Shown here piece by piece: positions 4,230 through 42,517 of a DNA stretch of 64,000 nucleotides. The notes under the pieces were generated by a model. The model saw nothing but the letters and a program-made list of their open reading frames with translations. It was not told the DNA's origin and ran no database searches. Each line of letters starts with the position of its first letter. The stretch's first letter is position 1. The position numbers and the translations under genes were made by a program. Origin of the DNA: a virus (lineage: Duplodnaviria > Heunggongvirae > Uroviricota > Caudoviricetes); IMG/VR virus record IMGVR_UViG_2541047850_000005, positions 1-64,000 of that record, one strand, 5' to 3'.

Positions 4230-4233
4230 AATC

Positions 4234-6052: not shown

Positions 6053-6170
6053 GATGGTTTCCTTATCAAGTTGCTTTCAGTGAAAGCATTTTCACAAATC
6101 AGATAAGGCAGAAAACAAATTGTTATCGGGCATAAGAAAATGGCGCGGTTTACGCGCCATTCAAAGAGGA

Positions 6171-6566
6171 TTAAGCGAATACGCTTTCAGGGATTAAGGT
6201 GTCAGCAGGAATGCCGGAGGTAATGCGCAGACCATACTGACCAATCCAGGTAGTGTTAGTGTTCAGACTGGAAGCGAATACGGTGTTAACCATATTCATC
6301 ATGGTTTCAAACACCTCTTTATTCACCTTACGGAAGTAACTTTCAATTTTCAACAACAACGGGTCCGTTGCATCAAAAATGGACTGATATTGCGCCTCAT
6401 ATTCCCCGCCTGATGTATCTCCTTTACGCACAATAGTACTTGCCTGAACTTCAGTTCCAGTTTCGGTGTTGTACGTAACGACGGTGATTTTAGCTACATT
6501 CTTACCTTCGGCGCTTTCTGAAGCATAGTAGACATCAACTGTCAGGTTTTCTCGTTTAACGCTCAT
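6171..6566 (-). CDS. hypothetical protein (131 aa; start moved to internal ATG with GGAGAG RBS)
   Basis: ORF track 6171..6578; ATG at 6566 has a better Shine-Dalgarno. Confidence 0.5.
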   Translation of the reverse strand: MSVKRENLTVDVYYASESAEGKNVAKITVVTYNTETGTEVQASTIVRKGDTSGGEYEAQYQSIFDATDPLLLKIESYFRKVNKEVFETMMNMVNTVFASSLNTNTTWIGQYGLRITSGIPADTLIPESVFA

Positions 6567-6692
6567 ATCACTCTCCATAGTGTCTTGGTTATTTTTCTAT
6601 TTTATAGACATAGGTATGTACTTACAATACAAAAAAAACCCGTAAGGATGGCGGGGCTGTCGTACTGTCGACTAATTACCACTTGCACATTA

Positions 6693-7004
6693 TCAGGCTA
6701 TTGCCATCACTGATGCTCTCTGAATCTCTTGCTGGGCCACGCGGTTAACTTCCATCAAAGCCAGTTCGAGCTGATGTTCCGGCCACATTCTTTGAAATGC
6801 CATCCAGCCTTTTCCACGCTGGCGACGAACATTCATTACATAACGAGTAAAGGTGTTTTTATCGAAAGACACCGCTGTTTCACGGAACAGACGAATAGAG
6901 GTTCCATTGGCAACGATGTCCAGCAAAGTTAATTGAGCAACCAGCGCAGGCTTCTCTTTTCTCTTCTGGTCTTTGTCCAGACCAAGAACCAATGATTTTT
7001 TCAT
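6693..7004 (-). CDS. hypothetical protein (103 aa; ATG start MKKSLVLG)
   Basis: track ORF begins at a TTG; in-frame ATG at 7004 has GGAG RBS and the conserved motif just upstream. Confidence 0.5.
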   Translation of the reverse strand: MKKSLVLGLDKDQKRKEKPALVAQLTLLDIVANGTSIRLFRETAVSFDKNTFTRYVMNVRRQRGKGWMAFQRMWPEHQLELALMEVNRVAQQEIQRASVMAIA

Positions 7005-7157
7005 CACAACTCCGTAAACAACTTGTTTTCTCAATGTCGTAAATAATACCAGTAAGAAAACGGCTACAAAGCATATTGATCAGGTGCATGAGCGATATGC
7101 AGGTTCTTCCCTGCGGCTATAGAGAAATTAAGCCAGCAATGCTGGCTTTGGTTGGGA

Positions 7158-7487
7158 TTACGCGAATACCTCAAGAAACTCCTGAACGTCCCAATGCTGG
7201 ACGAGGTGAAGATAGACCTTAGAAATCACGTCATTTTCACTATCGCATGTGAAGTAGTACTTCTGGCTGCGGTTGTATGTGTCCACACAAAATTCGCTCA
7301 TATCCATAAAGTCAGCATCTTCACCCATGTCGCAAATCATCAAAGCAGGTGCGTCATCACGAGTCATCAGCTCCAGCACCCATATTGAATTAATCAGAGT
7401 GGAAGACCAACCTTCCAGCTCATAAAACTGGTCAAACTCTTTTTGAGTCAATTTCTTAATTTGGTTGATGTCGATATTTGCAAACAT
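7158..7487 (-). CDS. hypothetical acidic protein (109 aa; start MFANIDIN)
   Basis: in-frame ATG at 7487 preceded by AAGGAT RBS and the conserved motif. Confidence 0.5.
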   Translation of the reverse strand: MFANIDINQIKKLTQKEFDQFYELEGWSSTLINSIWVLELMTRDDAPALMICDMGEDADFMDMSEFCVDTYNRSQKYYFTCDSENDVISKVYLHLVQHWDVQEFLEVFA

Positions 7488-7626
7488 AAAGCAATCCTTA
7501 AACATGTTGTTTTCTGAATTACGTAAACAATACCAGTAAGAAAACGGCCACAAAGTATATCGTTACGGTGCTGCGCTGCCCCGGAGGTTAATAGCGACAA
7601 AAGCCACCGTGCTGGTGGCCTCACTC

Positions 7627-7845
7627 TTAATCTTGGTCGTCCGGGAACTCGCTGTGTACCGCGCCAACCAGCTCCCGCTTTTCATCTTCACTCAGCAGGT
7701 GCCAGATATCCTTCCCTTTGGGCGATTCCCCTTCTGCCGGGACGAACGACCACAACTTGCGGTACAACTCCGGCCCCACTGCATCCAGACACTCAGCCAG
7801 GGAATCCACGCCCCACACCTCAACCGTCACAGGCATCTTAATCAT
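7627..7845 (-). CDS. hypothetical small protein (72 aa)
   Basis: ORF with GAGGA RBS. Confidence 0.45.
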   Translation of the reverse strand: MIKMPVTVEVWGVDSLAECLDAVGPELYRKLWSFVPAEGESPKGKDIWHLLSEDEKRELVGAVHSEFPDDQD

Positions 7846-8439
7846 CTCTTCATCCTCACTTCGTTTCTATAACGTCTAAATATGCTGTTTACTTGTTGGT
7901 GTTATTATCGCAATAAGACAAAGGCGAAAAAGGATTTTATGTCGGGAAAGCCAGGCTGGGCAGTGAATATCCGGGAACGACACGAGAGCCAGTATTTACG
8001 ATATTCTGCTCTACGCACGCCGCGGGGCTGGTGGGCAGAATAATCCTCTCCCCGAAAACCTACTGAAATCGATTGTGACCCGCTGGCTGTCTGGCACAAT
8101 TACGCTGTATCTGGCATTCAGAGGGAATCCAGCGGTAAGCAAGTCAGCCTGCACGTGAGCGTCTCTCTTCTTCCCGCACATTACAGGTGGGTAGCTGCAA
8201 CTCTCTCTCGCTATACCGGTACGCCGCCGTTCCTGAACCGGCATCGAGCCTTTTCCCGAAATCCACACAGGCAACTCGACCGTTTCCCTGAAAATCCCCA
8301 GCCGTTTCTGTAGCGTATGCAACCTTTTCTCTGTATGGACCGAAGGCTGACCGTAGGGGTGTTACGGGGGATGATGGTAAGATGTTGAATAAATACGAAA
8401 AAGGAGGCGACACCCCTCCTTCCCTCCCCACTTATACAT

Positions 8440-9300
8440 ACCTTGCTTCTTCGCTATACATGTTGTGTTTTCTTCGTGTTTTATCTGTCTCAACCTCTCT
8501 ATAGGCGTTAATGCTTACTCCTTCCAGAACGTTCTATACGGCGACTATTTCTGTTGGTGAATTGGGTGTGTTGTTTTCTCTGTCGATGTATGTGGTTTCG
8601 TTCGTTTTGCGGTGGTTCTTCTATGGGGTGTTCTCGTCGTTTTGGTGATTGTTCTTCTCCGTGTATGGAGTAATGGCAGGTGGGCGATTCCTTTCGTTAT
8701 TGTGTTTGAGTTGTTTGTCTGGAGTGTGTGAAGGGCTTTTGTAGTTATTCGTGTATTGGGTAATGGCGTTTCCCGTGATTGTTATGTTTCGTGTCTTTTG
8801 GGATTGAGAGAAACCTTGCGGTTACAGGCTTCGTTGGGGTTTCAGCGGTTCAGGTGTTTCTTCGCTGTTTGGGTAATGGCGTGTCGTGGGTATCGCGCGT
8901 ATGAATGTTTTCGGATTGCCTGTGAAAGTTAGGTTGGTTATCCGGTAGCCTGGGAAGAAGAGGTGGGGTCTTTTCGGTAGCCTGCCATAAAGAGGTTGGT
9001 TGTTTTGGGTAATGGCATATGTGTTATTTGGTTGTTTTGTTATGCCTGAAAATAAGTTGTTTATATGGTTGTGTAACGCAACGGGAGCGATTTTGAGCGT
9101 GTGTTTTTGTTGGTAGTGTGTTGAGTCGTCTGTGGTGAAAATTGGACGCTGTGGAGCTGTCTGCTGCGTAGGTTTACGGGTATAAGAAGTGATGTGTGAA
9201 AACGTCAATTTTTTAGACCAAATCGGGAGAAAGCGTTGATGTTTCGTTGATCTGTTATTTAGTTGTTTTCTTATTGGTATAAACAACTGTAACCTATTGA
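8440..9300. repeat. strongly G+T-skewed non-coding tract with degenerate ~100-135 bp repeats (recurring GGGTAATGGC core)
   Basis: plus strand nearly devoid of C/A runs; GGGTAATGGC-like core recurs at ~8664, ~8762, ~8872, ~9008; CGGTAGCCTG repeated twice. Confidence 0.5.
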
Positions 9301-9414
9301 TATTTAAGGATGTGATTGCAGGCATGGAAGGGGAGTAGTGGCGATCAACGGATTCTTATAGAAAAGAATCAAATTGTGACCGCCATTATCAACGGTTTGA
9401 ATATGTTTGCAGAT

Positions 9415-9714
9415 TTACCAGTTCCAGCACTCAAGCCCTTCAACGACCGGCGCACCACAATCAAAATGTACAGAGTCAAAGCCTACATCAAGTACTTTCT
9501 GAATGTTAGCAATCGCGCCTTCGGATATACCATATCGACGCAAGTCGTCTTTCCAGACATCATCCTGTAACCCGGCGTGGACAATACAACCGCCATCAAT
9601 TTGTGAAACCCAATCCAGCTCATTGCTTGCGATCATGAATCGGCGAGCATCTTCCTCTGATGTATGAGATGAACTGATCAATGCCACCTGGTAGGCTTGG
9701 GTAATGTTCAACAT
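9415..9714 (-). CDS. hypothetical protein (99 aa; start MLNITQ)
   Basis: in-frame ATG with GGAG RBS; two copies of conserved motif upstream (9727..9790). Confidence 0.5.
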   Translation of the reverse strand: MLNITQAYQVALISSSHTSEEDARRFMIASNELDWVSQIDGGCIVHAGLQDDVWKDDLRRYGISEGAIANIQKVLDVGFDSVHFDCGAPVVEGLECWNW

Positions 9715-9823
9715 TTCAACCACTCCAAAACAAGTTGTTTTCTTATGTGGCTTATTATCTCTAACAACAAAAGGCAGAAAACAAATTGTTTTAGGTACTG
9801 TGTAAATCAGAAGGGATTGTGTC

Positions 9824-9854
9824 TATATGAAAATGCCCGGCGTGTTGCCGGGCA
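9824..9854 (-). terminator. rho-independent terminator downstream of metG
   Basis: hairpin ATGCCCGGC-N5-GCCGGGCAT followed by TTTT on the minus strand. Confidence 0.6.
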
Positions 9855-9875
9855 TTGCGAAGAGAGGTTGCTTAA

Positions 9876-11909
9876 TTACTTAACCTGGTGACCAGGTTTA
9901 GCACCAGCATCCGGGCTTAACAGGAAGATATCTTTCCCACCAGGACCAGCAGCCATCACCATGCCTTCTGAGATACCGAAACGCATTTTACGCGGAGCCA
10001 GGTTAGCCACCATAATGGTGTGACGACCAATCAGTGCCTGTGGGTCTGGATAAGCAGAACGAATGCCGGAGAAGACATTACGCTTTTCCCCACCGAGATC
10101 CAGTGTCAGACGCAGCAGTTTGTCAGAGCCTTCAACAAACTCCGCGTTTTCAATCAGCGCCACACGCAGGTCAACTTTGGCGAAGTCGTCAAAGGTGATG
10201 GTTTCCTGAATCGGGTCGTCAGCCAGTGGGCCAGTTACCGGTGCGGCTGTGGCTTTCACTTCTTCTTTGGATGCTTCCACCAGTGCTTCCACCTGTTTCA
10301 TATCGATGCGGTTATACAGCGCCTTGAACGGATTCACTTTGTGGCCCAGCAGCGGTTGCTGGATACCATCCCAGGTCAGTTCTGTATTGAGGAATGCTTC
10401 TGCGCGCTCGGTCAGTTTCGGCAGTACCGGTTTCAGGTAAGTCATCAGCACGCGGAACAGGTTAATGCCCATAGAGCAAATCGCCTGCAGATCGGCATCG
10501 CGACCTTCCTGCTTCGCCACCACCCACGGAGCCTGTTCATCGACATAGCGGTTAGCCAGGTCAGCCAGTGCCATGATTTCACGGATAGCTTTACCAAATT
10601 CGCGGCTTTCCCATGCTTCGCCAATCACTTCAGCGGCATCAGTAAAGGTTTTGTACAGTTGCGGGTCAGCCAGTTCGCTTGCCAGCACGCCGTCAAAACG
10701 CTTGTTGATAAAGCCTGCATTACGGGAGGCCAGGTTAACCACTTTGTTCACGATATCGGCATTCACTCGCTGAACGAAATCTTCCAGGTTGAGATCGATA
10801 TCATCAATGCGCGAAGAGAGTTTCGCAGTGTAGTAGTAACGCAGGCTGTCGGCGTCAAAATGATTCAGCCAGGTGCTGGCTTTAATGAACGTGCCGCGAG
10901 ACTTGGACATCTTCGCACCGTTCACCGTCACATAGCCATGAACAAACAGGTTGGTCGGCTTGCGGAAGTTGCTGCCTTCCAGCATGGCAGGCCAGAACAG
11001 GCTGTGGAAGTAAACGATATCTTTACCGATGAAGTGGTACAGCTCGGCGGTGGAGTCTTTCTTCCAGTATTCATCGAAGCTGGAGGTGTCGCCGCGTTTG
11101 TCGCACAGATTCTTGAAGGAACCCATGTAGCCAATCGGCGCGTCCAGCCAGACGTAGAAATATTTGCCCGGCGCGTTCGGAATTTCAAAACCGAAATAAG
11201 GGGCGTCGCGGGAGATATCCCACTGTTGCAGGCCAGATTCAAACCACTCCTGCATTTTATTTGCCACCTGCTCCTGCAACGCACCGCTGCGGGTCCATGC
11301 CTGCAGCATTTCGCTGAAAGAAGGCAGATCAAAGAAGAAGTGTTCGGAATCACGCATTACCGGCGTAGCACCAGAAACTACCGATTTCGGCTCGATCAGT
11401 TCAGTCGGGCTGTAAGTCGCGCCGCAGACTTCACAGTTATCGCCGTATTGATCTGGCGCTTTACATTTAGGGCAGGTGCCTTTTACAAAACGGTCCGGCA
11501 GGAACATGCCTTTTTCCGGGTCGTATAACTGAGAGATGGTGCGGTTTTTAATAAAACCGTTCTCTTTCAGGCGAGTATAAATAAGCTCGGACAACTGACG
11601 GTTCTCTTCGCTGTGCGTCGAGTGATAGTTGTCATAGCTGATGTTAAAGCCTGCAAAATCAGTCTGGTGTTCCTGACTCATTTCGCCAATCATCTGTTCC
11701 GGTGTGATACCAAGCTGCTGTGCTTTCAGCATGATCGGTGTGCCGTGGGCATCGTCGGCACAGATGAAATTAACCTCGTGGCCGCGCATTCGCTGGTAAC
11801 GAACCCAGACATCAGCCTGGATGTGCTCCAGCATATGGCCGAGGTGGATTGAGCCGTTAGCGTACGGCAGCGCGCACGTCACCAGAATTTTCTTCGCGAC
11901 TTGGGTCAT
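9876..11909 (-). CDS. metG: methionine--tRNA ligase
   Basis: 677-aa product starting [26 protein letters not shown] (HIGH motif), KMSKS motif, C-terminal tRNA-binding domain; track ORF extends upstream of the true ATG. Confidence 0.95.
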
Positions 11910-12066
11910 AGTAGGCATTACTTCTTTGTAGTGAAAAGGGGCTTGATAGTAACAAAATGGCCTTATGTCTGCCATGTGATAACAGCATTTCTCATAAATG
12001 ATTAAATGCCGTAGCTGGAGTACACTACAAGGCGACAATTGCGCAAATTAAAATAAAGGAGACGGG

Positions 12067-13167
12067 ATGAGCGAGTCCAAATCGCCGGATGCCCTGAGAG
12101 CAATGGTAGCCGGTACGCTGGCTAATTTTCAGCACCCAACCCTGAAACACAACCTGACTACGCTTAAAGCGTTACACCATGTTGCGTTGATGGATGACAC
12201 ACTGCATGTCGAACTAATCATGCCTTTCGTGTGGAATAAGCCTTTTGAAGACCTGAAAGAGCAATGTAGTGGTGATCTGCTCCGTATCACTGGCGCAAAG
12301 GCTATCGACTGGAAGCTGTCGTACAACATTGCCACGCTTAAGCGCGTCAAAAACCAACCAGGCATTAATGGCGTTAAGAACATTATCGCCGTCAGCTCAG
12401 GCAAGGGCGGCGTTGGTAAATCCTCCACGGCGGTAAACCTGGCACTGGCGTTGGCTGCTGAAGGTGCGAAAGTTGGTATTTTGGATGCCGATATCTACGG
12501 GCCATCAATTCCAACCATGCTTGGCGCGGAAAACCAACGTCCAACCTCACCGGACGGTACTCACATGGCACCGATTATGTCTCATGGACTGGCAACCAAT
12601 TCAATTGGTTATCTGGTAACTGACGACAATGCGATGGTGTGGCGTGGTCCGATGGCGAGCAAGGCGTTAATGCAGATGTTGCAGGAAACTCTATGGCCTG
12701 ATCTGGACTATCTCGTTCTCGATATGCCGCCGGGTACTGGTGATATTCAGCTGACGCTGGCGCAGAACATTCCTGTAACTGGTGCTGTTGTGGTAACTAC
12801 GCCGCAAGATATCGCGCTGATCGATGCGAAGAAAGGCATTGTGATGTTCGAAAAAGTCGAAGTGCCGGTACTGGGTATCGTCGAAAACATGAGTGTGCAT
12901 ATTTGCAGTAACTGCGGTCATCACGAGCCAATTTTTGGCACCGGTGGCGCACAGAAACTGGCCGAGAAATACAACACGCAGTTGTTAGGCCAAATGCCAC
13001 TTCATATCTCTCTTCGTGAAGATCTGGATAACGGAACACCAACCGTTATTAGTCGTCCAGATAGCGAATTTACGGCTATTTATCGTGACCTTGCAGATCG
13101 CGTTGCTGCCCAAATGTATTGGCAAGGTGAAGTAATACCTGGCGAAATCGCATTCCGCGCAGTGTGA
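12067..13167 (+). CDS. apbC: Fe-S cluster carrier ATPase ApbC/Mrp
   Basis: P-loop SSGKGGVGKSSTAVNLA, CxxC motif (HICSNCGH), divergent from metG as in enterobacteria. Confidence 0.9.
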   Translation: MSESKSPDALRAMVAGTLANFQHPTLKHNLTTLKALHHVALMDDTLHVELIMPFVWNKPFEDLKEQCSGDLLRITGAKAIDWKLSYNIATLKRVKNQPGINGVKNIIAVSSGKGGVGKSSTAVNLALALAAEGAKVGILDADIYGPSIPTMLGAENQRPTSPDGTHMAPIMSHGLATNSIGYLVTDDNAMVWRGPMASKALMQMLQETLWPDLDYLVLDMPPGTGDIQLTLAQNIPVTGAVVVTTPQDIALIDAKKGIVMFEKVEVPVLGIVENMSVHICSNCGHHEPIFGTGGAQKLAEKYNTQLLGQMPLHISLREDLDNGTPTVISRPDSEFTAIYRDLADRVAAQMYWQGEVIPGEIAFRAV

Positions 13168-13194
13168 TAAAAAGGTGGTGCAATGCACCACCTA
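13168..13194. terminator. hairpin terminator between convergent apbC and umuD-like gene
   Basis: AGGTGGTGCA-a-TGCACCACCT stem with A/T runs on both sides (bidirectional candidate). Confidence 0.5.
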
Positions 13195-13204
13195 AACAGT
13201 TCTC

Positions 13205-13594
13205 CTACATCACAGGACAATCATCAAACTCGCCACTTCTTGCGTCGTTGATAATGTGAGTGATCACACCAAACACGGCATTGCTGCCCGTGCATCCATC
13301 ATCATCCTTTGGCAATGCTTCCTTCTTACCAGTTCTTAAATCCTCCAGATGCTGACGTGGATACTTCCGGTATCTTTTTACGCGATATTCCCCATCCAGA
13401 GCACATACAAGAAGAGATCCATCAACAGGAGTGAGTGAGGAATCGACCACCAGCAATGCACCCTGCAATATTCCCTCACGATGATGGCTATCAGCTGCCC
13501 TCAAGAAGTAGGTCGCTGAAGGATGTCTAATTATCTGCTGATCAAGAGAAATACGGCTCTCAGCATAATCCGCCGCAGGAGAGGGGTACCCCAT
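13205..13594 (-). CDS. umuD: UmuD-like S24 peptidase (translesion-synthesis accessory, HumD/UmuD' type)
   Basis: 129 aa; alignment-by-eye to UmuD (..HPSATYF..A.DS....GI..G.LL.VD.....G.......DGE..VK..); Ser and Lys of the S24 dyad present; LexA box upstream; no umuC adjacent. Confidence 0.75.
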   Translation of the reverse strand: MGYPSPAADYAESRISLDQQIIRHPSATYFLRAADSHHREGILQGALLVVDSSLTPVDGSLLVCALDGEYRVKRYRKYPRQHLEDLRTGKKEALPKDDDGCTGSNAVFGVITHIINDARSGEFDDCPVM

Positions 13595-19229: not shown

Positions 19230-19933
19230 CAGCGCACCTCACCATCTTTATGGCTGGAGTTAACTTCCGCCATTAAATGTCTGACGTAATCGACAAGAGA
19301 GCCACCTGGTGGAATCTGGCATTCCTCAACTAACTGGAAGTAGATATCCGCAGCATTACGTGTATTGCTACCCGCGCATATTCTTTCTTCCCGAAGTGCA
19401 TGAAGCTCGTTGATCAAACGGTCACACTCTCCGTTACGCTGATCCACAACAGCCTCAAGTTCTGCGACGCGTTCACCTGGCGTCTTACCTTCTTCGCGTT
19501 GGATGGTAACGACGAAATCGCCAATTGCAGGGACGTTGTAATCCAGCTCAAGGTAGTTTTTGGCACCGCTGCGGACGAACTCACCCGCGAACATGGTGGC
19601 GAACATCTCAGAGGCCATTGTGCTGTTGAAAAGTGACTCCAGATCTAACGGAGTCCCGGCAGCCAGAGCCTCTTTTGCTGTATCCATTGCATCCATGAAC
19701 CGATCAAACTCATTAGCGCGCTTTTCCAGGTCTTTCCATTGCTCGCTCCAACGTTTGGCAATGAAGTCTATGAATGTTTTCGCGGATTCATCAAAATCCC
19801 CCTCAAACTTAACGATGCCTTTATCAATAATGATCTGGCCTACCGCATCCTCTGCATAACCTTTCAATGTAAACTTGAAAGGAAAATCAGAATGGCCTGT
19901 GACGTTAAAATGCTCTAACTGGAGGTTGTTCAT
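19229..19933 (-). CDS. hypothetical protein (234 aa)
   Basis: ORF with ATG and A-rich leader. Confidence 0.5.
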   Translation of the reverse strand: MNNLQLEHFNVTGHSDFPFKFTLKGYAEDAVGQIIIDKGIVKFEGDFDESAKTFIDFIAKRWSEQWKDLEKRANEFDRFMDAMDTAKEALAAGTPLDLESLFNSTMASEMFATMFAGEFVRSGAKNYLELDYNVPAIGDFVVTIQREEGKTPGERVAELEAVVDQRNGECDRLINELHALREERICAGSNTRNAADIYFQLVEECQIPPGGSLVDYVRHLMAEVNSSHKDGEVR

Positions 19934-19994
19934 ATGTTTTTCTCTTATCGTTTAGTTATTACATTCTTACACAAATTAAGTAAGTATTTACCTA

Positions 19995-21680
19995 TCATTT
20001 AACGCGTTTGAAAACGTATACGCTGACTGTGATCCCTGTGTCTTCAAACTCGTTGGTAAACGACTTCCCTCTGGCATAAACGTAATTATCCATCGTCATC
20101 CAGTCCAGTATTGGCGCAGTGCCCGGCAATACTGCTACAAGACGCCCGCCGACTTTCAGATGCCCCAGCGCAGCCAGCGTGTGCTCTCTATGACGACCAA
20201 GCGAGTACGGCGGGTTCATAACGATTTTGTCGAACTGATAACCTGCGTTGTCCTCAGACCACTTTATGAAGTCGCAGCAAATCGTGTTCGTATACCCTTT
20301 TCCACGCAGGATATCAGCGAAGAGAGGTGCGATTTCTATACAGGTAACATCTTCCAGATCGGCGTTAATATAGGCCAGAAGATCCCCACGTCCGGCTTGA
20401 GGCTCCAGCAGCTTCTCACCAGGCTTCAATTCAGTGGCTCTGGCAACGTACTCAGCAATCAAGCGTGGGGTAGGGTAGAACTGGTGTGATTTTGTATCCG
20501 GTATTAAACCGGTAGCCACAATCGTATTTAGCGTATGGCCGATCTCATACTGGAACTGCCAGTGCTTTTTCTCCTGCACGCCGCCAATGAAGCTCAGTGT
20601 GCGCTCAAGCTCTTCCACCTGCGACTTCTGGAGAGCTGAATCAGAGAAGTACCATACGCCTTTGTCTTTGCTCAATCGCCCGTCACGAAGCGCAGTGCGA
20701 ACCGGCACGGAGATCGTCTTCTGGATTAACCCGAACTGCTTTGGTGCCCGTGTTTTTGGCGCAGTTCGGCATGGCGCGGGGATTGCAGCAGGCATACTGT
20801 AAGCCAGCACCTCATTCAACTTCCAGGCCACGTCAGGATGTATTTCAAAGTGAACGTTGCCGTTCTTGAACATCTTCACGCGCATCAGATTTCCATCGAC
20901 GTTCATCCAGTCACCGGTCTGGCAGTCGTTTGCCCTATACGCAGCTGATAGCACCTCAGCAGTGCGGTTGATGGTAATAAATTCTTTGTGCGCGAAGAAA
21001 TGAAGCAAGACACGCAGATCGTCGATGTAGTCCTCTTTGCGATAGTTCACGCTAACGCTGTCCCGCCAGAAATCAGAAATGCAGTCAGCGATTATCAGCC
21101 GCTCGCTGAAACCGTTTGTCTTATTTGTCTTGTGCGCAGGACTCAGCGCCTTAAACAAGCCATACACGCGCTCAGAGAGATATTTGTGCCTGTCATTCAG
21201 CAAATTAAGCATCGTGGGTATGACCGTTTCTGCTTTGAACTCCGGTACACCAACGAACTCTTTAACCTTCATCTGATAGCCGGTTCTGTCAGTTTTGATG
21301 ACTTCCTGCTTGCCCTCGATAAATTGCTCACGCCACTCGTCGCGACGGGAAGCTGGCATGATCAGCAGAACGTTAGTCATATCCGTGACCTTCCTCCAGT
21401 ACTCGGCCCAAATATTCTGTTTCACCCATTCCAGATCGACGTTATCCAGCCAGACTCGATTCAAACGTGAGCGATCTTCATCTGGTCGGTGGTTTAGTCG
21501 AAGCAGGCGATTAATCATGTTGTGGCGTTCATCGCCATAAACGAAGTCGTGTACCTGATACATGAAGGAGATCTCTTTCTCGCACTCGGCCACAATTTCG
21601 TGGATGACGTTCATTTCCTGTCGATAGTCGATAGCAGTGTTTGAGCTGGCATCGTCCATGATGGAAAGAGCTGTATTCAT
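19995..21680 (-). CDS. two-domain protein with C-terminal gamma-class N6-adenine DNA methyltransferase domain
   Basis: FYPTP (motif X-like), LEPQAGRGDL (SAM-binding GxG), NPPY catalytic motif in the last ~170 aa; ~400-aa N-terminal domain unassigned. Confidence 0.7.
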   Translation of the reverse strand: MNTALSIMDDASSNTAIDYRQEMNVIHEIVAECEKEISFMYQVHDFVYGDERHNMINRLLRLNHRPDEDRSRLNRVWLDNVDLEWVKQNIWAEYWRKVTDMTNVLLIMPASRRDEWREQFIEGKQEVIKTDRTGYQMKVKEFVGVPEFKAETVIPTMLNLLNDRHKYLSERVYGLFKALSPAHKTNKTNGFSERLIIADCISDFWRDSVSVNYRKEDYIDDLRVLLHFFAHKEFITINRTAEVLSAAYRANDCQTGDWMNVDGNLMRVKMFKNGNVHFEIHPDVAWKLNEVLAYSMPAAIPAPCRTAPKTRAPKQFGLIQKTISVPVRTALRDGRLSKDKGVWYFSDSALQKSQVEELERTLSFIGGVQEKKHWQFQYEIGHTLNTIVATGLIPDTKSHQFYPTPRLIAEYVARATELKPGEKLLEPQAGRGDLLAYINADLEDVTCIEIAPLFADILRGKGYTNTICCDFIKWSEDNAGYQFDKIVMNPPYSLGRHREHTLAALGHLKVGGRLVAVLPGTAPILDWMTMDNYVYARGKSFTNEFEDTGITVSVYVFKRVK

Positions 21681-21783
21681 AATTGCACCATTAAGAAATG
21701 ATTTGTTTAATGATGCAATTATTTCAAAAATAAAAAGGTGCTAAATAGAAATTAACAGGCAATACTTAAAATAAAGGCATTGA

Positions 21784-22458
21784 CTAATCATACTTGGATG
21801 TATTTATAACCAGGACTTTATTTGTATATAGTTTTTTTACATCCCATGTAACATTACTTGAATACCATTCACCATTATATATTTGGTTTCCCGTTGCGCC
21901 TGTCATTGTTACGTATACAGGTCTGTCGTAAGGTGTTCGTCTATAGTTATATACTCCAACCATTGCAGGCATTATCGCACACGGGTATCCCATATTTATG
22001 GTAAATTGAGGATTTGTAATAGTGATAATCTCTGCATCAAGGGGCATCATCTCACCGTGATATACCATTTTACCTGCGCTATTATACATGGCAATACCAT
22101 ATCCTGAATGTGGTAACACCATATCAGAAAAAGCATAAACTGTTATCGTTCCGGGGTTTCCTCCAACCTGATTCAGTCTGAGAACATTATACCCATCTCT
22201 AAATTCATGAACGAACATCATATTCGCCTTATTACTGCTTTTTATAAAGAAAAAACATGATTTGTTCGACGGTATTGAAGTCTTAAAAACAGAACCTTTA
22301 GACGTGGACATTGTCCCCCTATTAATCAAATTTTGCGGTGTAAATTCTGGACTCATCCACACATTACCATTTGACTGAGTAATTGACATCCCGAACATTA
22401 TTGTTATCCCCAATATGTATATATATAAGATCCAAGTCCCTTGTATAAATTTGACCAA
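21784..22458 (-). CDS. hypothetical Tyr/Asn/Thr-rich protein with N-terminal hydrophobic segment (AT-rich cargo gene; start uncertain, TTG or internal ATG)
   Basis: ORF in markedly AT-rich segment; overlaps upstream ORF in another frame. Confidence 0.4.
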   Translation of the reverse strand: MVKFIQGTWILYIYILGITIMFGMSITQSNGNVWMSPEFTPQNLINRGTMSTSKGSVFKTSIPSNKSCFFFIKSSNKANMMFVHEFRDGYNVLRLNQVGGNPGTITVYAFSDMVLPHSGYGIAMYNSAGKMVYHGEMMPLDAEIITITNPQFTINMGYPCAIMPAMVGVYNYRRTPYDRPVYVTMTGATGNQIYNGEWYSSNVTWDVKKLYTNKVLVINTSKYD

Positions 22459-22685
22459 CTTACTGTATTGCCGTTAATAGTGATAGTTGGTGTAGGTATA
22501 TTTACATGGTTATCGTTATTTAAAGGCATCAATGAGCACACAGCATGTAATGATTTGCCAGGTGGTGGATTTGGGTAAGTCTTAGAGCCTGACGTGGTTG
22601 TAAATCGATCAAGAAAAAAAATAGGAGTAAGGAAGCCGGTAACGTTAACTCCCTTATTATTGTAGATCCCTGTACCGTATGCCAT
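22404..22685 (-). CDS. hypothetical protein (93 aa), possibly the N-terminal part of a frameshifted gene with 21784..22458
   Basis: ATG start; 55-nt out-of-frame overlap with the next ORF. Confidence 0.35.
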   Translation of the reverse strand: MAYGTGIYNNKGVNVTGFLTPIFFLDRFTTTSGSKTYPNPPPGKSLHAVCSLMPLNNDNHVNIPTPTITINGNTVSWSNLYKGLGSYIYTYWG

Positions 22686-22739
22686 TTTTCATCCTTGTTT
22701 TTATCAACATAATATGGCCGATCATGCGGCCATATCAGA

Positions 22740-23309
22740 TCAATTAGAGCTTTGAAAGGCTTTGTGTGGCTGTGTTGCGAGGTTATGTCGATGGCTTAAC
22801 TCACGCATCATGTCTTCAAAGCGACTCTTTGTGTCGTCGAGTTGGTCAGCCATTGCTCCTAAAAGCTGACGAACTACCATCGGATCGTCGCTGTTTAGTG
22901 ATGGCATTTTATAACCCGCCTGAGAAGACATCAGATTGAATGCAGACATCAACATCGTTAGAGAGGATTTAAGCCCGGCAATTTCACGATCTTTGCTGGC
23001 AATAATCGTCTCACTTTTGTTACTGTCATGAGTTCCTTGAGTCTCGCTCACCATATCCAAAGTCGCCTGCAACTTATCAGCGCGCTCTTTTTCAGCAAGA
23101 TAATGAACACCGAAATGATGTGCTAAAGCTACAACCTGAGTTGGCTCTTCAAAGGTGGACTCAAAATTAAGTGCTGTAACCACTCTCTCAAAAATGGAAA
23201 CGTCTTCTATTCCTCGAAGAATGGCTAACATTTTGACCAGTTCATTAGCATCCATTTCTTCGAATAAGGCGTTTTGTTCATCAGCTATCGCTTTGCATTT
23301 CTTGCACAT
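22740..23309 (-). CDS. hypothetical protein (189 aa)
   Basis: ATG with GGAAAAACAC leader and conserved motif upstream. Confidence 0.5.
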   Translation of the reverse strand: MCKKCKAIADEQNALFEEMDANELVKMLAILRGIEDVSIFERVVTALNFESTFEEPTQVVALAHHFGVHYLAEKERADKLQATLDMVSETQGTHDSNKSETIIASKDREIAGLKSSLTMLMSAFNLMSSQAGYKMPSLNSDDPMVVRQLLGAMADQLDDTKSRFEDMMRELSHRHNLATQPHKAFQSSN

Positions 23310-23448
23310 GTGTTTTTCCTAATGCTTAAACAAGTTGTTTTCTTATTGGCTTTATTGTGATGTGGCATAAAAGGGGAGCAAGCTAAACGTAAAGGTGCAA
23401 ACTCTCTATTTCGGTCAACGAAACACAATGGCCATTTGACCCTTGTCA

Positions 23449-23607
23449 TTAACACGTTGCTTTACGGACTAGCGGATAAGCGAAGTAGATCGCCAGACCA
23501 ATGAGGACGCCATCAGAAATGACAGACATCATCTTTCCCGTAAAATCCACCAACACCGCCATCACCAGAAGAGCAATGACGGTCACAAGCCGGAATCTCT
23601 CAAGCAT
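23449..23607 (-). CDS. small hydrophobic protein (~52 aa, two predicted TM segments), not in ORF track
   Basis: ATG overlaps the TAA of the upstream TerB-like gene (TAATG); translation MLERFRLVTVIALLVMAVLVDFTGKMMSVISDGVLIGLAIYFAYPLVRKATC read by hand. Confidence 0.35.
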   Translation of the reverse strand: MLERFRLVTVIALLVMAVLVDFTGKMMSVISDGVLIGLAIYFAYPLVRKATC

Positions 23608-24032
23608 TAGAGATAAGCATCCAGTGACAACTGAAGCGCCTGGGCGATCTTTTTCAGCGCCTGCTCTTCTGGTTCATCAATGCCGTCTTGGTCGGCAATA
23701 TCAAGGCACAGACAAAGTACATCTACTGCATCATCAGTCCCGGCCACATCCGCCAGCTCACGTAAAGCCTGGGCATTAGCACGGCGCGGTGAGGCTTCGT
23801 ATTGAGCGCGGATATTGGCGCTCATCTGGGCAATCTCACCAGCAAAAGGAGAAAATGCAGGCAGAGCTGCAATTGTTTTCTCAAGAATGGAAATTTCTTT
23901 TGCATCGCATGTACCGTTGGCATAGGAGATCATGTACCCACCCCACACGGTGGCTTCAACCGCATCACGGTTCTCCATTTTTTTGACTTCGATAACTGCT
24001 TTACGAGTTTTCTTTTTGAAGAAACCTAACAT
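23607..24032 (-). CDS. TerB-like domain protein (141 aa)
   Basis: all-alpha composition with ..LCLCLDIADQDGIDEPEEQALKKIA.. resembling the TerB (tellurite-resistance B-like) motif. Confidence 0.45.
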   Translation of the reverse strand: MLGFFKKKTRKAVIEVKKMENRDAVEATVWGGYMISYANGTCDAKEISILEKTIAALPAFSPFAGEIAQMSANIRAQYEASPRRANAQALRELADVAGTDDAVDVLCLCLDIADQDGIDEPEEQALKKIAQALQLSLDAYL

Positions 24033-24125
24033 GTGTTTTCCTTTTGTTATTTGTCAAAACAAGTTGTTTTCTAGTTAAATAAATTGCTTACGCAAAGGCG
24101 GTCAATGCATATGCACTAACAACCG

Positions 24126-24314
24126 TCAGAAATAACCAAGTACCGAACCGACTGGAAAAATAAAAATCCCAACTACACGAGCCAAGGTCATGCCAGCCTG
24201 AAACTGGAGATCGCCAGAGCAAACAAGTTTTATAATGTTCGATACCCAACCGGCGGCCATGAGGGCAAGAATTGCCAGCCAAATTTTTCCAAAGTGATTT
24301 GAAAACCAGTTCAT
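24126..24314 (-). CDS. small membrane protein (62 aa)
   Basis: two hydrophobic segments; ATG overlaps stop of upstream 83-aa ORF (ATGA). Confidence 0.45.
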   Translation of the reverse strand: MNWFSNHFGKIWLAILALMAAGWVSNIIKLVCSGDLQFQAGMTLARVVGIFIFPVGSVLGYF

Positions 24315-24529
24315 ACAACCGCCTTAGTCACAGCATGATCCTGAGTAACTGGATGAACTTGAGGTATCGCATCCACCGTCATCCCATCCAGAGTGACAGG
24401 ACGCTCTGCTGGAGTGGTGGTAATTGTCGTCGACGGAGGTGTGGTGATGGATGAATCCGGCATCAAAAGGCTCTGGCCGGCTGGAACGGCTACCGTCGCC
24501 AGTGAAACTATAATGAGAACGTAGGCCAT
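24311..24529 (-). CDS. small secreted Pro/Thr-rich protein (start MAYVLIIVSLATVAVPA)
   Basis: signal-peptide-like N-terminus, AAGAGG RBS; alternative frame to 24324..24839. Confidence 0.35.
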   Translation of the reverse strand: MAYVLIIVSLATVAVPAGQSLLMPDSSITTPPSTTITTTPAERPVTLDGMTVDAIPQVHPVTQDHAVTKAVV

Positions 24530-24839
24530 TGGTTTCAGCCTCTTTCTTTGAAAATTTTCCATTCGAACTGTCCTTGTTGTTTTTCTCCTTCACTAAAGGC
24601 CGTGCATTTTTCGCTTGGTGTGAAGAACCAGAGGTAACAATCGCCCCCACGTTCGCAACAACTGACGCTTGCTTATCTAAACGTTCATTCAGCAACCGAA
24701 CGGTAGTCTCAAGTTCATCAAGACGTGACAGAACACGACCGCTAAATAATTCGGCCAAAATTTGACGTAGTGAACGAGGACGTTTAGTTGCAGAAGTGAA
24801 ATAGGTTTGACGTGCCATGTGGACTCCATCCAGTGTCAT
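24324..24839 (-). CDS. hypothetical protein (171 aa; C-terminal half low-complexity and possibly spurious)
   Basis: longest ORF in track; overlaps the 83-aa ORF in another frame, so only one of the two is likely real over 24324..24562. Confidence 0.3.
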   Translation of the reverse strand: MTLDGVHMARQTYFTSATKRPRSLRQILAELFSGRVLSRLDELETTVRLLNERLDKQASVVANVGAIVTSGSSHQAKNARPLVKEKNNKDSSNGKFSKKEAETNGLRSHYSFTGDGSRSSRPEPFDAGFIHHHTSVDDNYHHSSRASCHSGWDDGGCDTSSSSSYSGSCCD

Positions 24840-24963
24840 AAAGAGTTGCGGCTGGCGATTGCCAGCCGCCTTTCTCGTTCCATCCTGGAACTGTGTCTTA
24901 CCGACACATTGTCATCCTGACGCCGATAAGATACATGATTTATAATGATAGGTAAACACTTAC

Positions 24964-25557
24964 TTACTGCTTGTTATAAACAAAACCAATATCTTTCTTG
25001 TGAGGCATATCTGCTGCGGAAAAAGCTGCGATCTTCGCGAGTCGATCACATATTTCATTTTCACGATGCCCGGCGTGACCTTTAACCCACTTCCAGCGAA
25101 CATTATGTCGACTTGCGGCCTCATCCAGACGCTTCCACAGATCAACATTCTTTACCGGTTTTTTGTCAGAAGTCATCCATCCATTGCGTTTCCACCATTT
25201 CATCCACTGTGTCATGCCGTTTTTCAGATACTGGCTATCAGAGTGCAAAATAACGTTGCATGGATATTTCAAACGCTCCAGCCCGATAAGTGCCCCCATC
25301 ATCTCCATGCGGTTATTGGTGGTGCTATGAAAACCATCTGAGAACTCGCGTTCCTCACCACGATACTGAAGAACGATACCGTAACCGCCCGGGCCACCCG
25401 GATTTTTAAGGCAAGAGCCATCACTGAAGATTTTCACGGTTTTAAGCTGGGGATTGAACTCTACGACAGGCGTTGTGGGATTGGTACGGGGAGAATTTTT
25501 GTTTTTGGCTTTTTTGCGAGTTTTTGCTTGCGATCGGGCTGGTGTCTTCGTCGTCAT
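24964..25557 (-). CDS. rnhA: ribonuclease HI with basic N-terminal extension
   Basis: ..[18 protein letters not shown].., ..TTNNRMEMM.., ..HSDSQYL.., ..[15 protein letters not shown].. match RNase HI active-site motifs; start at internal ATG with GGAG RBS. Confidence 0.85.
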
Positions 25558-25611
25558 ATAAACTCCTGAATCAAGCGCCGCGCCGATTTTTTTTTCCTCG
25601 CGCGTGCGCAC

Positions 25612-26141
25612 ACGCGTGCGTGTTAATAATTATTAAAATAAACAAATTACTTCCCAGAACAGGTTTTTATAAACCTGAACTGAACGAACGAAGTGAGTGA
25701 AGTTCACCTCGAACGAAGTGAGAGGTTGTCTTTTCAGGTAATACTCTCCCAGGGAGGTGAGTATAAAATTCCTCACCAACCTGGTCGTTTCATAACCTGA
25801 AAAGTTATGGTCTAAGTCTACTGCCAGCTTAGACTTGGGAAGTTATGGATGACAGCACCCCAGAACCGAGATCTTCCCACACTTTATGAAGGGGAGTACT
25901 GGATTCAACCTCTCGAAACACCCCAGACTCGACAATCATAAAGTGACCCTTGTCTCTGCTCACTTTGGTTCCCCCTTCCCCGACACCTAAACGGCACCGG
26001 TTCTACGCTGGTAGTGAGCTTTTTAAACCTGACGCCAGTGACGCTTACCCCCACCCATCAGGTCGAGCCTCCAGTCTACGACTGGAAACAATCAGATCTT
26101 AGCACTTACAATTCACTTTATGAATAGTTTGTACTTATCTA
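25612..26141. other. ~530-bp ORF-free region with multiple inverted repeats and short direct repeats (candidate structured ncRNA or cis element)
   Basis: no ORF >=60 aa; palindrome GCGCGTGCGCACACGCGTGCG; hairpins CAGGTTT-ttata-AACCTG, GGTGAG-N10-CTCACC, AAGTCT-N12-AGACTT; direct repeat GAACGAAGTGAG x2. Confidence 0.4.
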
Positions 26142-26396
26142 TCATTGTGATTGATTATTTTCTCGACCATGTAGTTGAACATTCAAGGCAAACACCTCAT
26201 TGATCAACTCACCTAAAAGCTGTTCAACAAGTTCGCGATGCTCCCCAAGATGCAAGCACTTAATTGCCCATTCGTACAAGTTGAAAGCCTGCTCTCGATC
26301 TTTCATCATTTCACGAGCCTTAGCCAGAAAATCGCTCTCTACGAGCGCAACGACATTAGTCGGGTATGACATGTTGGTTTCCTTAAAGTGGTTCAT
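26142..26396 (-). CDS. hypothetical protein (84 aa)
   Basis: ORF with ATG, AAGGAAACC RBS. Confidence 0.4.
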   Translation of the reverse strand: MNHFKETNMSYPTNVVALVESDFLAKAREMMKDREQAFNLYEWAIKCLHLGEHRELVEQLLGELINEVFALNVQLHGRENNQSQ

Positions 26397-26556
26397 AAAA
26401 TCGATTTTAAAGCGTCTGGGAAGGGGGTCTAGTGGATTCTGTAGTGATGTTCAGGTCTGGGAGTCTCTGATACAAAACAGCCTGCTTCCGTATATTAATA
26501 ATTAATATGTAGTTATTTATATACAGAAGCAGGTTAATTACACTCGCCAGAACAAA

Positions 26557-27150
26557 CTAAGCAGCCTTCTTTGATGCTCTTTTTTTTCTGACCACATTCG
26601 CAGGATCATACCCTCCCAGACTTTTCATGACGTCCAAAGGGATCTTGCTTATAGAGTGCCCAGCGTCCTGACAGAATCCTCGAAAAACAACGAGCATACT
26701 GCCACCGGGGTTGATGTTTACTTCTACCTGACCCAAATTGACGTCAGGCTCGACAAACGCTACGCGGCCACCAGACAGAATAATCGTCTCATTCGCATAC
26801 TCTGTTGCACGCTCATACCACTTTGTATCGAGGGATTGAGGAATTAGCATCACTGTTGTAACTCCGCGAGCCTGCTCACGTATAGCCGCATCAATCCAGG
26901 GGGAGATTTTGGAGTAGGGTGGATTGAGGAAGGCAATTGTACCTGGCTGCCCCCATTCAGATTTCAAAGCATCGCGCTCAACGCCTATGAAAATAGGCAG
27001 CTTTGCATTGTCCTTGTTGCAGGCAACGTCAACATCAAATGTCACTCCAAGATAACGTTGAATGGCAGAAAACAGCCAATCAGGTGTTCTCCAGAGATCA
27101 CGAAGAGAGTTGTCGCGCTTTCGCTGTTTGATTTTTTCGGCTGCAATCAT
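26557..27150 (-). CDS. phage-type DNA N6-adenine methyltransferase (Dam-like)
   Basis: ..IAFLNPPYSKISPWI.. (NPPY catalytic motif) in a ~200-aa protein, typical of small phage Dam enzymes. Confidence 0.8.
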   Translation of the reverse strand: MIAAEKIKQRKRDNSLRDLWRTPDWLFSAIQRYLGVTFDVDVACNKDNAKLPIFIGVERDALKSEWGQPGTIAFLNPPYSKISPWIDAAIREQARGVTTVMLIPQSLDTKWYERATEYANETIILSGGRVAFVEPDVNLGQVEVNINPGGSMLVVFRGFCQDAGHSISKIPLDVMKSLGGYDPANVVRKKRASKKAA

Positions 27151-27214
27151 CTTTTTTCTCGATAGGTAAGTGATTACCTATTTTTGCATTTGATTTCATG
27201 TATGGCAATCAAAT

Positions 27215-27260
27215 AAAACGCGCCAGAAATGCGAACAAGAAGCTCTCTGGCGCGTTTTTG
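27215..27260 (-). terminator. rho-independent terminator (CGCGCCAG..CTGGCGCG with T-runs on both strands)
   Basis: 8-bp GC stem, T-tract on the minus strand downstream of 27334..28143; a second hairpin CTGGGTA..TACCCAG follows. Confidence 0.5.
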
Positions 27261-27333
27261 TGGTGCTGGGTATGGGTTATGCTTACCCAGCACTATAAAG
27301 CTCTCTATGGGCTTTATTTTCAGTAGGGGAACG

Positions 27334-28143
27334 TCATCCAATAGTGTACTCCGCGACAAACTTCTTAACGATCGGTGATTCTTCGTTCAATGTTAGATTT
27401 CCACCGTCTCTAACAGCAATTCCTGTAGCTGGAAATACAGCCATCATTTGCCCAGCCTGAGTTGACGCAGTGTTAAGCGGATACGGTTTTTCTGGATTGC
27501 TCATTAAAGCAATCTTAATACTATTACTTGTAGCCTTCTTTTCTGTGAGAAGGTGTCTCATGGAAATTACCGTGTAAACACTAATATCTGGACCTCCGCT
27601 AAACCAATTAAGAAGATTTAATATCTTATCCTTCGCTTTGACAGGCGCGTTTTCGTAAGCGTCTAAGAAAATATCTTTTTCTAAGCCTGCTTTATTGAAA
27701 AACGAATCATCTTTATCACTTAAAGTAAAACGAGGACCTCTTGCAACACGAGCTTTTTTATTTGTATTGCTATCATTTGACTGTTGAACTTTTAATTCAT
27801 CATTAACCTCAACACACTCTTCAACCTCAATAAATCCCAATTGTTCTGGCTCGTTTTCGGCAGCTTCAACACTTTCAGCGTTAATTACGTTTATAGGCTC
27901 ATGCGCTAACTCCAACTCATTTAAAGCAGAGCTGAAATCACCTGCTTTTTCTTCATTGAACAGTTCTTCGGCAACATCATCAGAACTCATGGCTACGCCA
28001 GCATCGAGGCCGAGAAGCAGATCGTCAATATCATCAGTATTTTCAACCTGTGCAGCTTTTTTTACTGGTTCATCAAGTGATTGCAACATGGCTGTCAGCT
28101 CATCCAGATCATCATTTGTCATTACATTTTCAACCGAACTCAT
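27334..28143 (-). CDS. hypothetical highly acidic protein (269 aa)
   Basis: ORF with ATG; N-terminal two-thirds very D/E-rich. Confidence 0.5.
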   Translation of the reverse strand: MSSVENVMTNDDLDELTAMLQSLDEPVKKAAQVENTDDIDDLLLGLDAGVAMSSDDVAEELFNEEKAGDFSSALNELELAHEPINVINAESVEAAENEPEQLGFIEVEECVEVNDELKVQQSNDSNTNKKARVARGPRFTLSDKDDSFFNKAGLEKDIFLDAYENAPVKAKDKILNLLNWFSGGPDISVYTVISMRHLLTEKKATSNSIKIALMSNPEKPYPLNTASTQAGQMMAVFPATGIAVRDGGNLTLNEESPIVKKFVAEYTIG

Positions 28144-42196: not shown

Positions 42197-42282
42197 ATGT
42201 CATTTTTCTGTGATTGTTAGCCGAGGCAACGATAACCCACCAGGTGCGCCGAAGGTAGTAAATGCCTGTTTTAATTATTCAC

Positions 42283-42356: not shown

Positions 42357-42395
42357 CTGTAAGCCGCGCCACGACTGGTCTGAAGCCATGTTCAT

Positions 42396-42497: not shown

Positions 42498-42517
42498 TGA
42501 ATGACAAAGGTGTCCAC

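Follow-up and report, generated by a model that had tools for sequence, protein, structure and literature searches.

Two orphan adenine-N6 methyltransferase genes of an SSU5-like phage-plasmid, one of them fused to a YdiA/DUF4942 module

Orphan DNA methyltransferases (MTases) of phages and plasmids have been described as protective (PMC11541004; PMC5778455), and the leading regions of plasmids are known to be rich in anti-defence genes (PMC11541004). Among the families significantly enriched in such leading regions are two YdiA families listed as 'Uncharacterized; DUF4942', with 2,171 and 551 members (Samuel et al. 2024, PMC11541004, Supplementary Table 1). Here we examine a phage-borne locus in which both themes meet. 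It lies in a stretch of 64,000 nucleotides of viral DNA (IMG/VR record IMGVR_UViG_2541047850_000005, positions 1 to 64,000; the whole stretch is called the window below) and holds two MTase genes, a large one of 561 codons that carries a DUF4942 domain and a small one of 197 codons. How does this locus compare with the described systems, and what might the two enzymes do for the element that carries them?

A phage-plasmid with two orphan methyltransferases

The two open reading frames (ORFs) are the following.

19995-21680, minus strand: gene of the 561-residue YdiA/DUF4942-MTase fusion (orphan N6-adenine MTase, phrog_6263), seen as an ORF and annotated in plasmid p09EL50 as 'DUF4942 domain-containing protein'.
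26557-27150, minus strand: gene of the 197-residue phage-type N6-adenine MTase (PF05869/TIGR01712), seen as an ORF and annotated in p09EL50 as 'phage N-6-adenine-methyltransferase'.

The segment at 19500-27500 is identical (100%) to Escherichia phage PhiR41_1, 98.7% identical to p09EL50 (from E. coli O104:H4 2009EL-2050) and to Shigella sonnei plasmids of about 108 kb, and about 83% identical to Salmonella phage SSU5, where both MTases are annotated. Because of these identities the element, judged by its sequence, is an SSU5-like phage-plasmid; the label 'island' given to it in the initial annotation has to be dropped. The same segment matches 710 plasmids, nearly all of them non-mobilizable. 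Both ORFs, on the other hand, had been placed correctly, since they coincide with annotated coding sequences of p09EL50, and the distance between them, put at 5 kb, measures 4.9 kb. It also holds that both genes encode adenine-N6 MTases, as the family profiles and the intact NPPY motifs of the two proteins show.

The explanation that we favour, and hold to be reasonably probable, is that both proteins are self-protective orphan DNA adenine MTases of the phage-plasmid. By methylating the element's own DNA they would let it escape host restriction as it enters or replicates in a new cell, which is presumably also when they are expressed. The small enzyme would act on GATC and keep the DNA of the fast-replicating phage-plasmid fully methylated at this site, with the side benefit of covering six conserved GATCs in an origin of the P1 type. 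The large enzyme would be a three-part fusion (YdiA/DUF4942 module, about residues 1-305; linker and subdomain, 306-395; catalytic core, 396-561), in which a core without a target-recognition domain (TRD) depends on the conserved N-terminal module to hold or find its DNA substrate. The family of the large enzyme would share one target, since the module barely varies across the family, and this target is probably short or relaxed. Of the self-protective or regulatory methylation first proposed, the protective half is thus the most reasonable role for enzymes without a nuclease partner, while the regulatory link to replication is weak.

That there is no such partner can be seen in the ten ORFs around the two MTase genes, which we scan with Pfam and PADLOC. 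None has a nuclease or defence match beyond RNase HI, a DEDDh 3'-5' exonuclease and TerB, and several have no annotation. The absence of any such match besides RNase HI and the exonuclease supports the orphan status of the two enzymes and bears out the earlier statement that no cognate restriction endonuclease is evident; none is found beside the distant homologues either. The adjacent cognate endonuclease of a Type II restriction-modification system is likewise not found among these ten flanking ORFs, the unannotated ones included.

The relatives of the large enzyme tell more about its context. There are 362 homologues, the full-length orthologues lying on contigs of about 100-118 kb from many Enterobacterales, and the family occurs on mobile elements only. 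Distant full-length homologues (33-38% identity) sit in early or replication regions of prophages in Variovorax and in an enterobacterial genome, beside orphan MTases (PF01555, PF00145) and with no nuclease. A third one adjoins a Dam-family gene, in a layout that matches the IncHI2 plasmid pEC-IMP of Enterobacter cloacae, where a full-length 563-residue DUF4942-MTase (locus 2994-7278) is found two genes from a Dam-family MTase of the PF02086 type. A pattern recurs across SSU5-like elements, prophages and IncHI2 plasmids: an enzyme of the large type is accompanied by another orphan MTase, whose family differs from case to case.

Could a partner nonetheless be hidden among the unannotated neighbours? 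We consider it highly improbable that either MTase, or the pair, works within restriction-modification or a methylation-associated defence system (MADS) with a nuclease or effector that has escaped annotation. The thought is suggested by the best PADLOC match of the large enzyme, mad2 (E = 7.8e-16), by the several adjacent ORFs that have no family assignment, and by one homologue, gp121 of Pseudomonas phage Dolphis (locus 1936-3624), that is labelled 'RE endonuclease'. The mad2 match, however, is restricted to the MTase core (residues 382-523), the same core that matches MTase_II (E = 2e-10), and the neighbours have no PADLOC match at all, so that membership of MADS is not seen; nor do they have a nuclease match in Pfam besides RNase HI and the DEDDh exonuclease. 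The neighbours of the homologues, moreover, differ between SSU5-like elements, prophages, Dolphis and IncHI2 plasmids and are not kept from one to the other. As for Dolphis gp121, this protein of 562 residues consists of DUF4942 and MTase and has no nuclease domain, and its label is therefore a probable mis-annotation.

The large enzyme and its N-terminal module

The large enzyme can be divided into three parts, with its motifs at the following places.

20766-21680, minus strand: residues 1-305, N-terminal YdiA/DUF4942 module, with an acidic helical start (1-82) and a conserved core (about 83-303) that ends in AIPxxxR.
20496-20765, minus strand: residues 306-395, basic linker (304-327, net charge +5) and small alpha/beta subdomain that accompanies the MTase core (from charge, secondary structure and phrog_9133).
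19995-20495, minus strand: residues 396-561 and stop codon, Rossmann MTase core without TRD (from motifs, conservation, Foldseek and PADLOC).
Residues 400-405: motif X, QFYPTP.
Residues 426-432: motif I, EPQAGRG.
20205-20216, minus strand: motif IV, NPPY, residues 489-492.

Within the core the first residue of FYPTP is 401, that of AGRG 429 and that of NPPY 489, giving the order X-I-IV. The initial annotation had confined a gamma-class core to the last 170 residues or so; this stands, with the core taking up the last 165 or so residues. The linear gamma order is followed within a single Rossmann core (QFYPTP, EPQAGRG, E449, D470-F471, NPPY). We align 134 representatives, 28-35% identical to the large enzyme, and find Q400, E426, G430, G432, E449, D470, N489 and P491 to be invariant or nearly so. 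Over its full length the protein matches phrog_6263 'DNA methyltransferase' (E = 2.8e-299). Its AlphaFold model is confident, with a predicted local distance difference test (pLDDT) score of 82, and a Foldseek search of the whole model against the PDB returns MTase cores only, over some 170-200 residues, including TrmN, M.TaqI (E = 4.9e-7), HsdM and several RNA MTases.

The likeness to the gamma-class N6-adenine DNA MTases (M.TaqI, HsdM, PF02384) is therefore one of motif order, X (xFYxTP), I (ExxxGxG) and IV (NPPY), and of a core that can be superposed. Unlike the members of that class, the large enzyme has neither a C-terminal recognition domain nor a partner of the HsdS type, it scores below the threshold of PF02384, and its core is preceded by a conserved module of about 395 residues. 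In the predicted structure the 70 or so residues after NPPY are the last strands of the Rossmann fold, and because the protein ends with these strands, no C-terminal TRD is present. The same core is found inside much larger proteins. The family phrog_9133, of 1259 residues, aligns with residues 328-560 (E = 3.1e-50), and the core recurs in giant proteins of 3,066 residues in Vibrio phage D60 (locus 727-9927) and of 3,787 residues in Pseudomonas phage phiC725A (locus 2103-13466). In phiC725A the gene adjoins lysis and tail genes, and its product carries the annotation 'internal virion' protein.

If the core is bare, substrate binding must come from elsewhere, and the obvious place to look is the N-terminus, in which no recognisable motif had been reported over some 400 residues. 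This is not the case. Residues 140-295 match PF13708 (DUF4942; E = 1.7e-20), their score of 73.9 bits exceeding the cut-off of 25. In the alignment of representatives the module equals the catalytic core in conservation: the top residue has a mean fraction of 0.68-0.73 at residues 161-200 and 261-300, and at least 98% of the sequences retain each of the polar residues S180, H183, T185, N186, D221, R223, D262, H277 and N289. A profile search of 1.84 billion representatives finds 1,493 proteins that bear the module, 413 of them at E < 1e-30. Among the top 150, almost every protein is 510-580 residues long, and in a sample of ten DUF4942 is present in every one and a C-terminal MTase domain in seven of the eight that exceed 500 residues. 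From these lengths and this sample, the DUF4942-MTase architecture is fixed.

What the module might bind is less easily read from its structure or charge. A separate model of residues 1-392 has a pLDDT of 81.6; searched against the viral structure library BFVD, it retrieves just two uncharacterised phage proteins, and a profile search of PDB sequences with the N-terminal module gives nothing significant. A segment-by-segment analysis of charge singles out the linker at 304-327 (24 residues, net +5) as the one clearly basic stretch; residues 1-82 are acidic, so that apart from this short linker the charge carries no clear DNA-binding signature.

The module also exists without an MTase. A translated search finds the DUF4942 core on 2,793 plasmids, of which 1,759 are conjugative. 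One example is the IncI-gamma/K1 plasmid pEC16I_2 of E. coli, where it forms a stand-alone DUF4942/YdiA protein of 282 residues (6629-7477 of the examined locus), in which no MTase motifs are found and which aligns with residues 83-303 of the large enzyme at an hhalign probability of 98.8%. Its gene is the one nearest oriT/nikA in the leading region and is co-oriented with ardA, psiB and psiA. Among the polar residues that the fused proteins keep, several are exchanged in it (such as H183 to Y and R223 to V). One source gives the name 'YdiA' to the pHCM2 orthologue of the large enzyme as well. In the literature searched for DUF4942, the family is mentioned in gene tables only, with no described function. 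A separate candidate, that M.EcoGIX of IncI plasmids might itself be a DUF4942 enzyme, is rejected, as M.EcoGIX is a beta-class DPPY enzyme (PMC7736820).

These observations invite a broader proposal, which we put forward tentatively and regard as doubtful. YdiA/DUF4942 may work autonomously, as a domain for establishment or anti-defence that has its own conserved active or binding site (LSxxHxTN, DLR, H277, N289). It would act alone in the oriT-proximal leading regions of IncI-type plasmids and in genomic islands. Fused to an MTase that lacks a TRD, as in phages, phage-plasmids and IncHI2 plasmids, it might for example direct methylation to element DNA that is newly entered or single-stranded.

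A related possibility, the main rival of the favoured explanation though unlikely in our view, is that the large enzyme is a small, 'mini-polyvalent' anti-defence protein with two separate functions, where the module acts without methylation, for example by binding or inhibiting a host defence factor or by binding the entering single-stranded DNA, and the MTase does something else. The position of the 282-residue protein, nearest oriT and in the company of ardA and psiAB, speaks for it, as do the enrichment of DUF4942/YdiA families in leading regions (PMC11541004), the nine universally conserved polar residues, which suggest a defined site, and the occurrence of the MTase core with the 328-395 subdomain, but without DUF4942, in giant multi-domain phage proteins. 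Yet the MTase core lacks any recognition domain and needs another part to bind its substrate, a fusion of near-invariant length over hundreds of clusters fits an obligatory unit better than a loose one, and several of the polar residues of the fused form, H183 and R223 among them, are replaced in the stand-alone protein.

Several points weigh against the self-protective explanation with which we started. For a target-recognition module, which the N-terminal domain had been suggested it may be, beside a regulatory one, the DUF4942 module is atypical: it is conserved to the level of the core (among the 134 representatives, at about 30% identity) and it exists in a stand-alone form with no MTase. 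GATC is neither depleted nor enriched in the whole window (262 sites observed and 245 expected, about one per 244 bp) and is uninformative either way. An unrecognised partner among the neighbouring ORFs that have no annotation is conceivable. In the literature searched, neither protein nor any other DUF4942-MTase has a measured activity, substrate or specificity. Lastly, NPPY cores are found in RNA and protein MTases too, several of the top structural matches are RNA MTases, and the large enzyme scores 13.6 bits with PF02384 (N6_Mtase), below the gathering score of 20.4.

The last of these points raise the question of whether the large enzyme modifies DNA at all. It might instead modify RNA (N6-methyladenosine, m6A, or N2-methylguanosine, m2G, in tRNA or rRNA) or a protein, with the N-terminal module recognising that substrate. 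NPPY/DPPY cores are common to RNA and protein MTases, the top Foldseek matches include TrmN, RlmL/K, Trm11, ErmE and PH1948, the NCBIfam matches are weak and point to Erm and KsgA, and PF02384 is below threshold. We nevertheless consider a substrate other than DNA very improbable. QFYPTP, EPxAGxG and NPPY are the signature of gamma-type DNA amino-MTases such as M.TaqI and HsdM, both of which are among the structural matches; the PADLOC match to Type II MTases and the PHROG match to 'DNA methyltransferase' are significant; the core is shared with the giant phage proteins; and time and again the gene is found in the company of bona fide DNA MTases. DNA thus remains the probable substrate in the self-protective explanation.

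The small enzyme, GATC sites and the replication origin

The assignment of the small enzyme is straightforward. It scores 129.3 bits with PF05869 (Pfam cut-off 28.1) and 112.5 bits with the NCBIfam equivalog TIGR01712 'phage N-6-adenine-methyltransferase' (cut-off 97.05), and it matches phrog_111 with E = 2.7e-64. With both scores above the curated cut-offs, its description as an adenine-N6 MTase with an NPPY motif is upheld. The motif, placed by alignment, is as follows.

26914-26925, minus strand: NPPY motif of the small MTase, residues 76-79.

The description 'Dam-like' fares less simply. It agrees with the Pfam name of PF05869, while kinship in sequence with E. coli Dam is not seen: PF02086, the alpha-class D12-class model of E. 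coli Dam, matches neither protein of the window at E values up to 1, where the Dam-family gene of the IncHI2 plasmid scores 143.9 bits with the same model. Because PF02086 is unmatched, the enzyme is Dam-like in name only.

Its true relatives are the phage Dam enzymes of the PF05869/TIGR01712 type (HP1, VT-2/Stx-phage, T1), which likewise are small, phage-borne orphans that combine DxWxTP and NPPYS and have no separate recognition domain. DxWxTP (D18, W20, T22, P23) and NPPYS are invariant across the alignment of the small MTase with the VT2, HP1 and T1 enzymes. The identities are 37% to VT2-Sakai, 30% to HP1 and 28% to T1, and the small MTase differs from these enzymes (28-37% identity) by an insertion of eight residues and a longer basic C-terminal tail. 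The HP1, VT-2 and T1 enzymes reportedly act on GATC, and GATC is probably the target of the small MTase as well; this is a best guess by analogy, and the identity of just 30-37% or so to studied enzymes limits the prediction to moderate confidence. Those of HP1 and VT-2 are among the phage Dam MTases that have been cloned (cited in PMC7556043). For the family as a whole, PF05869, there is no solved structure, and sequence profile searches of the PDB with the small MTase give nothing significant.

The strongly basic C-terminal tail (26557-26616) reads VVRKKRASKKAA; a similar tail is found in T1 Dam and is absent from HP1 Dam. On account of this basic character and distribution, the tail may be an accessory DNA-binding element. 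The non-specific enzymes Hia5 and M.EcoGII, considered as relatives of the small MTase, are rejected: Hia5 is an alpha-class enzyme related to Dam/DpnM, and M.EcoGII is a 349-residue beta-class enzyme with DPPY (PMC5778455).

The sites on which the small enzyme would act are clustered at the replication origin of the element, which has the following parts.

42275-42355, plus strand: core of a P1-type oriR, with two DnaA boxes (42275-42291) and then six GATCs (42297-42355), from the sequence and its identity to P1/P7.
42396-44148, plus strand: rep gene (42398-43612) flanked by iterons of about 20 bp, four or five at 42396-42501 and twelve at 43612-44148 (repeat family, 16 copies).

The rep gene is annotated in p09EL50 as 'RepB family plasmid replication initiator', and the layout is like that of incC-repA-incA. 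The GATC cluster noticed in the initial annotation is real: six sites fall within 55 bp (42297-42352) directly upstream of rep. Positions 42264-42385 are 77-83% identical to the oriR of P1/P7, including the tandem DnaA boxes and the sites annotated there as 'Dam site; methylation site'. The likeness to P1/P7 thus extends to the DnaA boxes, the clustered GATCs and the iterons on both sides of rep, with the differences that the iteron sequence and the Rep protein are others than in P1 and that there are six GATCs compared with the four annotated in K02380.1. All six are kept in SSU5 and in Klebsiella pJN2-26, where the spacers vary. Since this conserved cluster is homologous to the Dam sites of the P1 oriR, GATC methylation very probably matters at the origin of the phage-plasmid, by analogy with P1.

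Does the small enzyme then serve replication control, as had been proposed? One may picture methylation on this element as mainly regulatory, with the small enzyme controlling the P1-type origin (through the timing of initiation or sequestration by SeqA) or packaging, and the large enzyme setting marks for lysis-lysogeny or expression. The six GATCs kept in SSU5 and Klebsiella despite the drift of their spacers are in line with this picture. So is the example of P1, whose oriR requires Dam methylation and which carries a Dam of its own that is needed for pac cleavage. The known Enterobacterales hosts, however, all have Dam to our knowledge, and this host enzyme would be able to methylate the origin in the plasmid state, as it would normally do for a P1-type oriR. 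Homologues of the PF05869 type are, moreover, found in about 2,000 phage records; the listed phages are mostly not known as plasmids and include lambdoid phages, T1 and HP1, in which we know of no P1-type plasmid origin. Between the MTase genes and the origin there are 15-22 kb, the genes being in a block of nucleotide metabolism, and nothing ties the large enzyme to any regulatory site.

We therefore regard a mainly regulatory role for the pair as improbable. Because hosts have Dam and PF05869 enzymes are common in phages with no known plasmid origin, the proposed link of the small enzyme to replication control is weak, and a dedicated role of this kind is possible at most. Only about half of the Dam sites of lambda are methylated (Drozdz et al.). 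It is plausible that the small enzyme assists when replication outruns the host Dam.

Gene neighbourhood, significance and known systems

The MTase genes are part of a lengthy run of co-oriented genes that also codes for RNase HI, the DEDDh 3'-5' exonuclease, dihydrofolate reductase and thymidylate synthase, for NrdAB and SbcCD-like proteins and, further along, for DnaE. Between the two genes, at 23449-24032, are a protein of 141 residues with a TerB domain (PF05099) and a 52-residue DUF3927 protein. A strong, bidirectional, terminator-like hairpin of nine pairs (eight of them G-C) is found just downstream of rnhA, also between the MTase genes, at 24848-24869, and it suggests that the two genes belong to separate transcription units. 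A promoter scan finds promoter-like sites at the level of chance (16, compared with 16.3) and offers no promoter evidence on operon structure. About 530 bp at 25612-26141, between rnhA and an ORF of 84 residues upstream of the small-MTase region, hold no convincing ORF and have no Rfam match; tRNA and Rfam searches of the whole window return no match.

Away from this block, at 9876-13167, is a divergent pair of metG (methionyl-tRNA synthetase, an ORF of 720 residues on the minus strand) and apbC/mrp (12067-13167, plus strand). The arrangement is that of the E. coli chromosome, yet the pair is only about 90% identical to the chromosomal copy; copies on other plasmids (236 plasmid places) share 98% identity with it. 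The GC content of the segment is 0.516, compared with about 0.46 in its surroundings. It looks like old captured housekeeping DNA.

How much does the locus matter? Orphan MTases are routine in phages and plasmids; both genes belong to catalogued families with many near-identical public copies, and taken by themselves they matter little and are an ordinary finding. What lends them some weight is their carrier and the module of the large enzyme. Clinical E. coli, Salmonella, Shigella and Klebsiella are bacteria in which SSU5-like phage-plasmids spread, and the range of hosts open to these elements is probably determined in part by their MTases. DUF4942/YdiA is widespread, with about 1,500 sequence clusters, presence on about 2,800 plasmids and enrichment in leading regions, and here lies the main residual interest; the 561-residue enzyme would be a convenient experimental handle on what the module does. 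Should YdiA/DUF4942 prove to be the autonomous domain proposed above, one of the largest uncharacterised gene families of leading regions would thereby gain a function, and a new way of targeting a DNA methyltransferase would come to light.

We close by setting the two enzymes beside the systems they most resemble. With the giant 'polyvalent' DarB-like proteins the large enzyme shares residues 328-561, which match PHROG families of 1,259-3,925 residues; it differs from them in having only 561 residues, made up of the DUF4942 and MTase parts, and no helicase or other enzymatic domains. With the YdiA/DUF4942 proteins of conjugative-plasmid leading regions and CP4-type genomic islands it shares the PF13708 match, the alignable stretch at about residues 83-303 and the confinement to mobile elements. 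There YdiA is the whole protein, beside oriT and without MTase; here it is a module fused to an MTase, in the replication block of a phage-plasmid.

The nearest parallels in likely role are M.EcoGII of prophages, M.EcoGIX of IncI/IncF leading regions and Dmt/Dam of P1. In family they stand apart: M.EcoGII and M.EcoGIX belong to the beta class, with DPPY, and Hia5 to the alpha class, whereas the two MTases of the window are NPPY enzymes of other families, homologous to them in the MTase fold only. Relaxed or single-strand specificity is demonstrated for enzymes of the M.EcoGII/M.EcoGIX type and is a conjecture for those of the window. What the present enzymes likely have in common with M.EcoGII, M.EcoGIX and P1 Dmt/Dam is their role, methylation that is encoded by the element, works without a nuclease and would evade host restriction on entry (PMC5778455; PMC7736820; PMC11541004).

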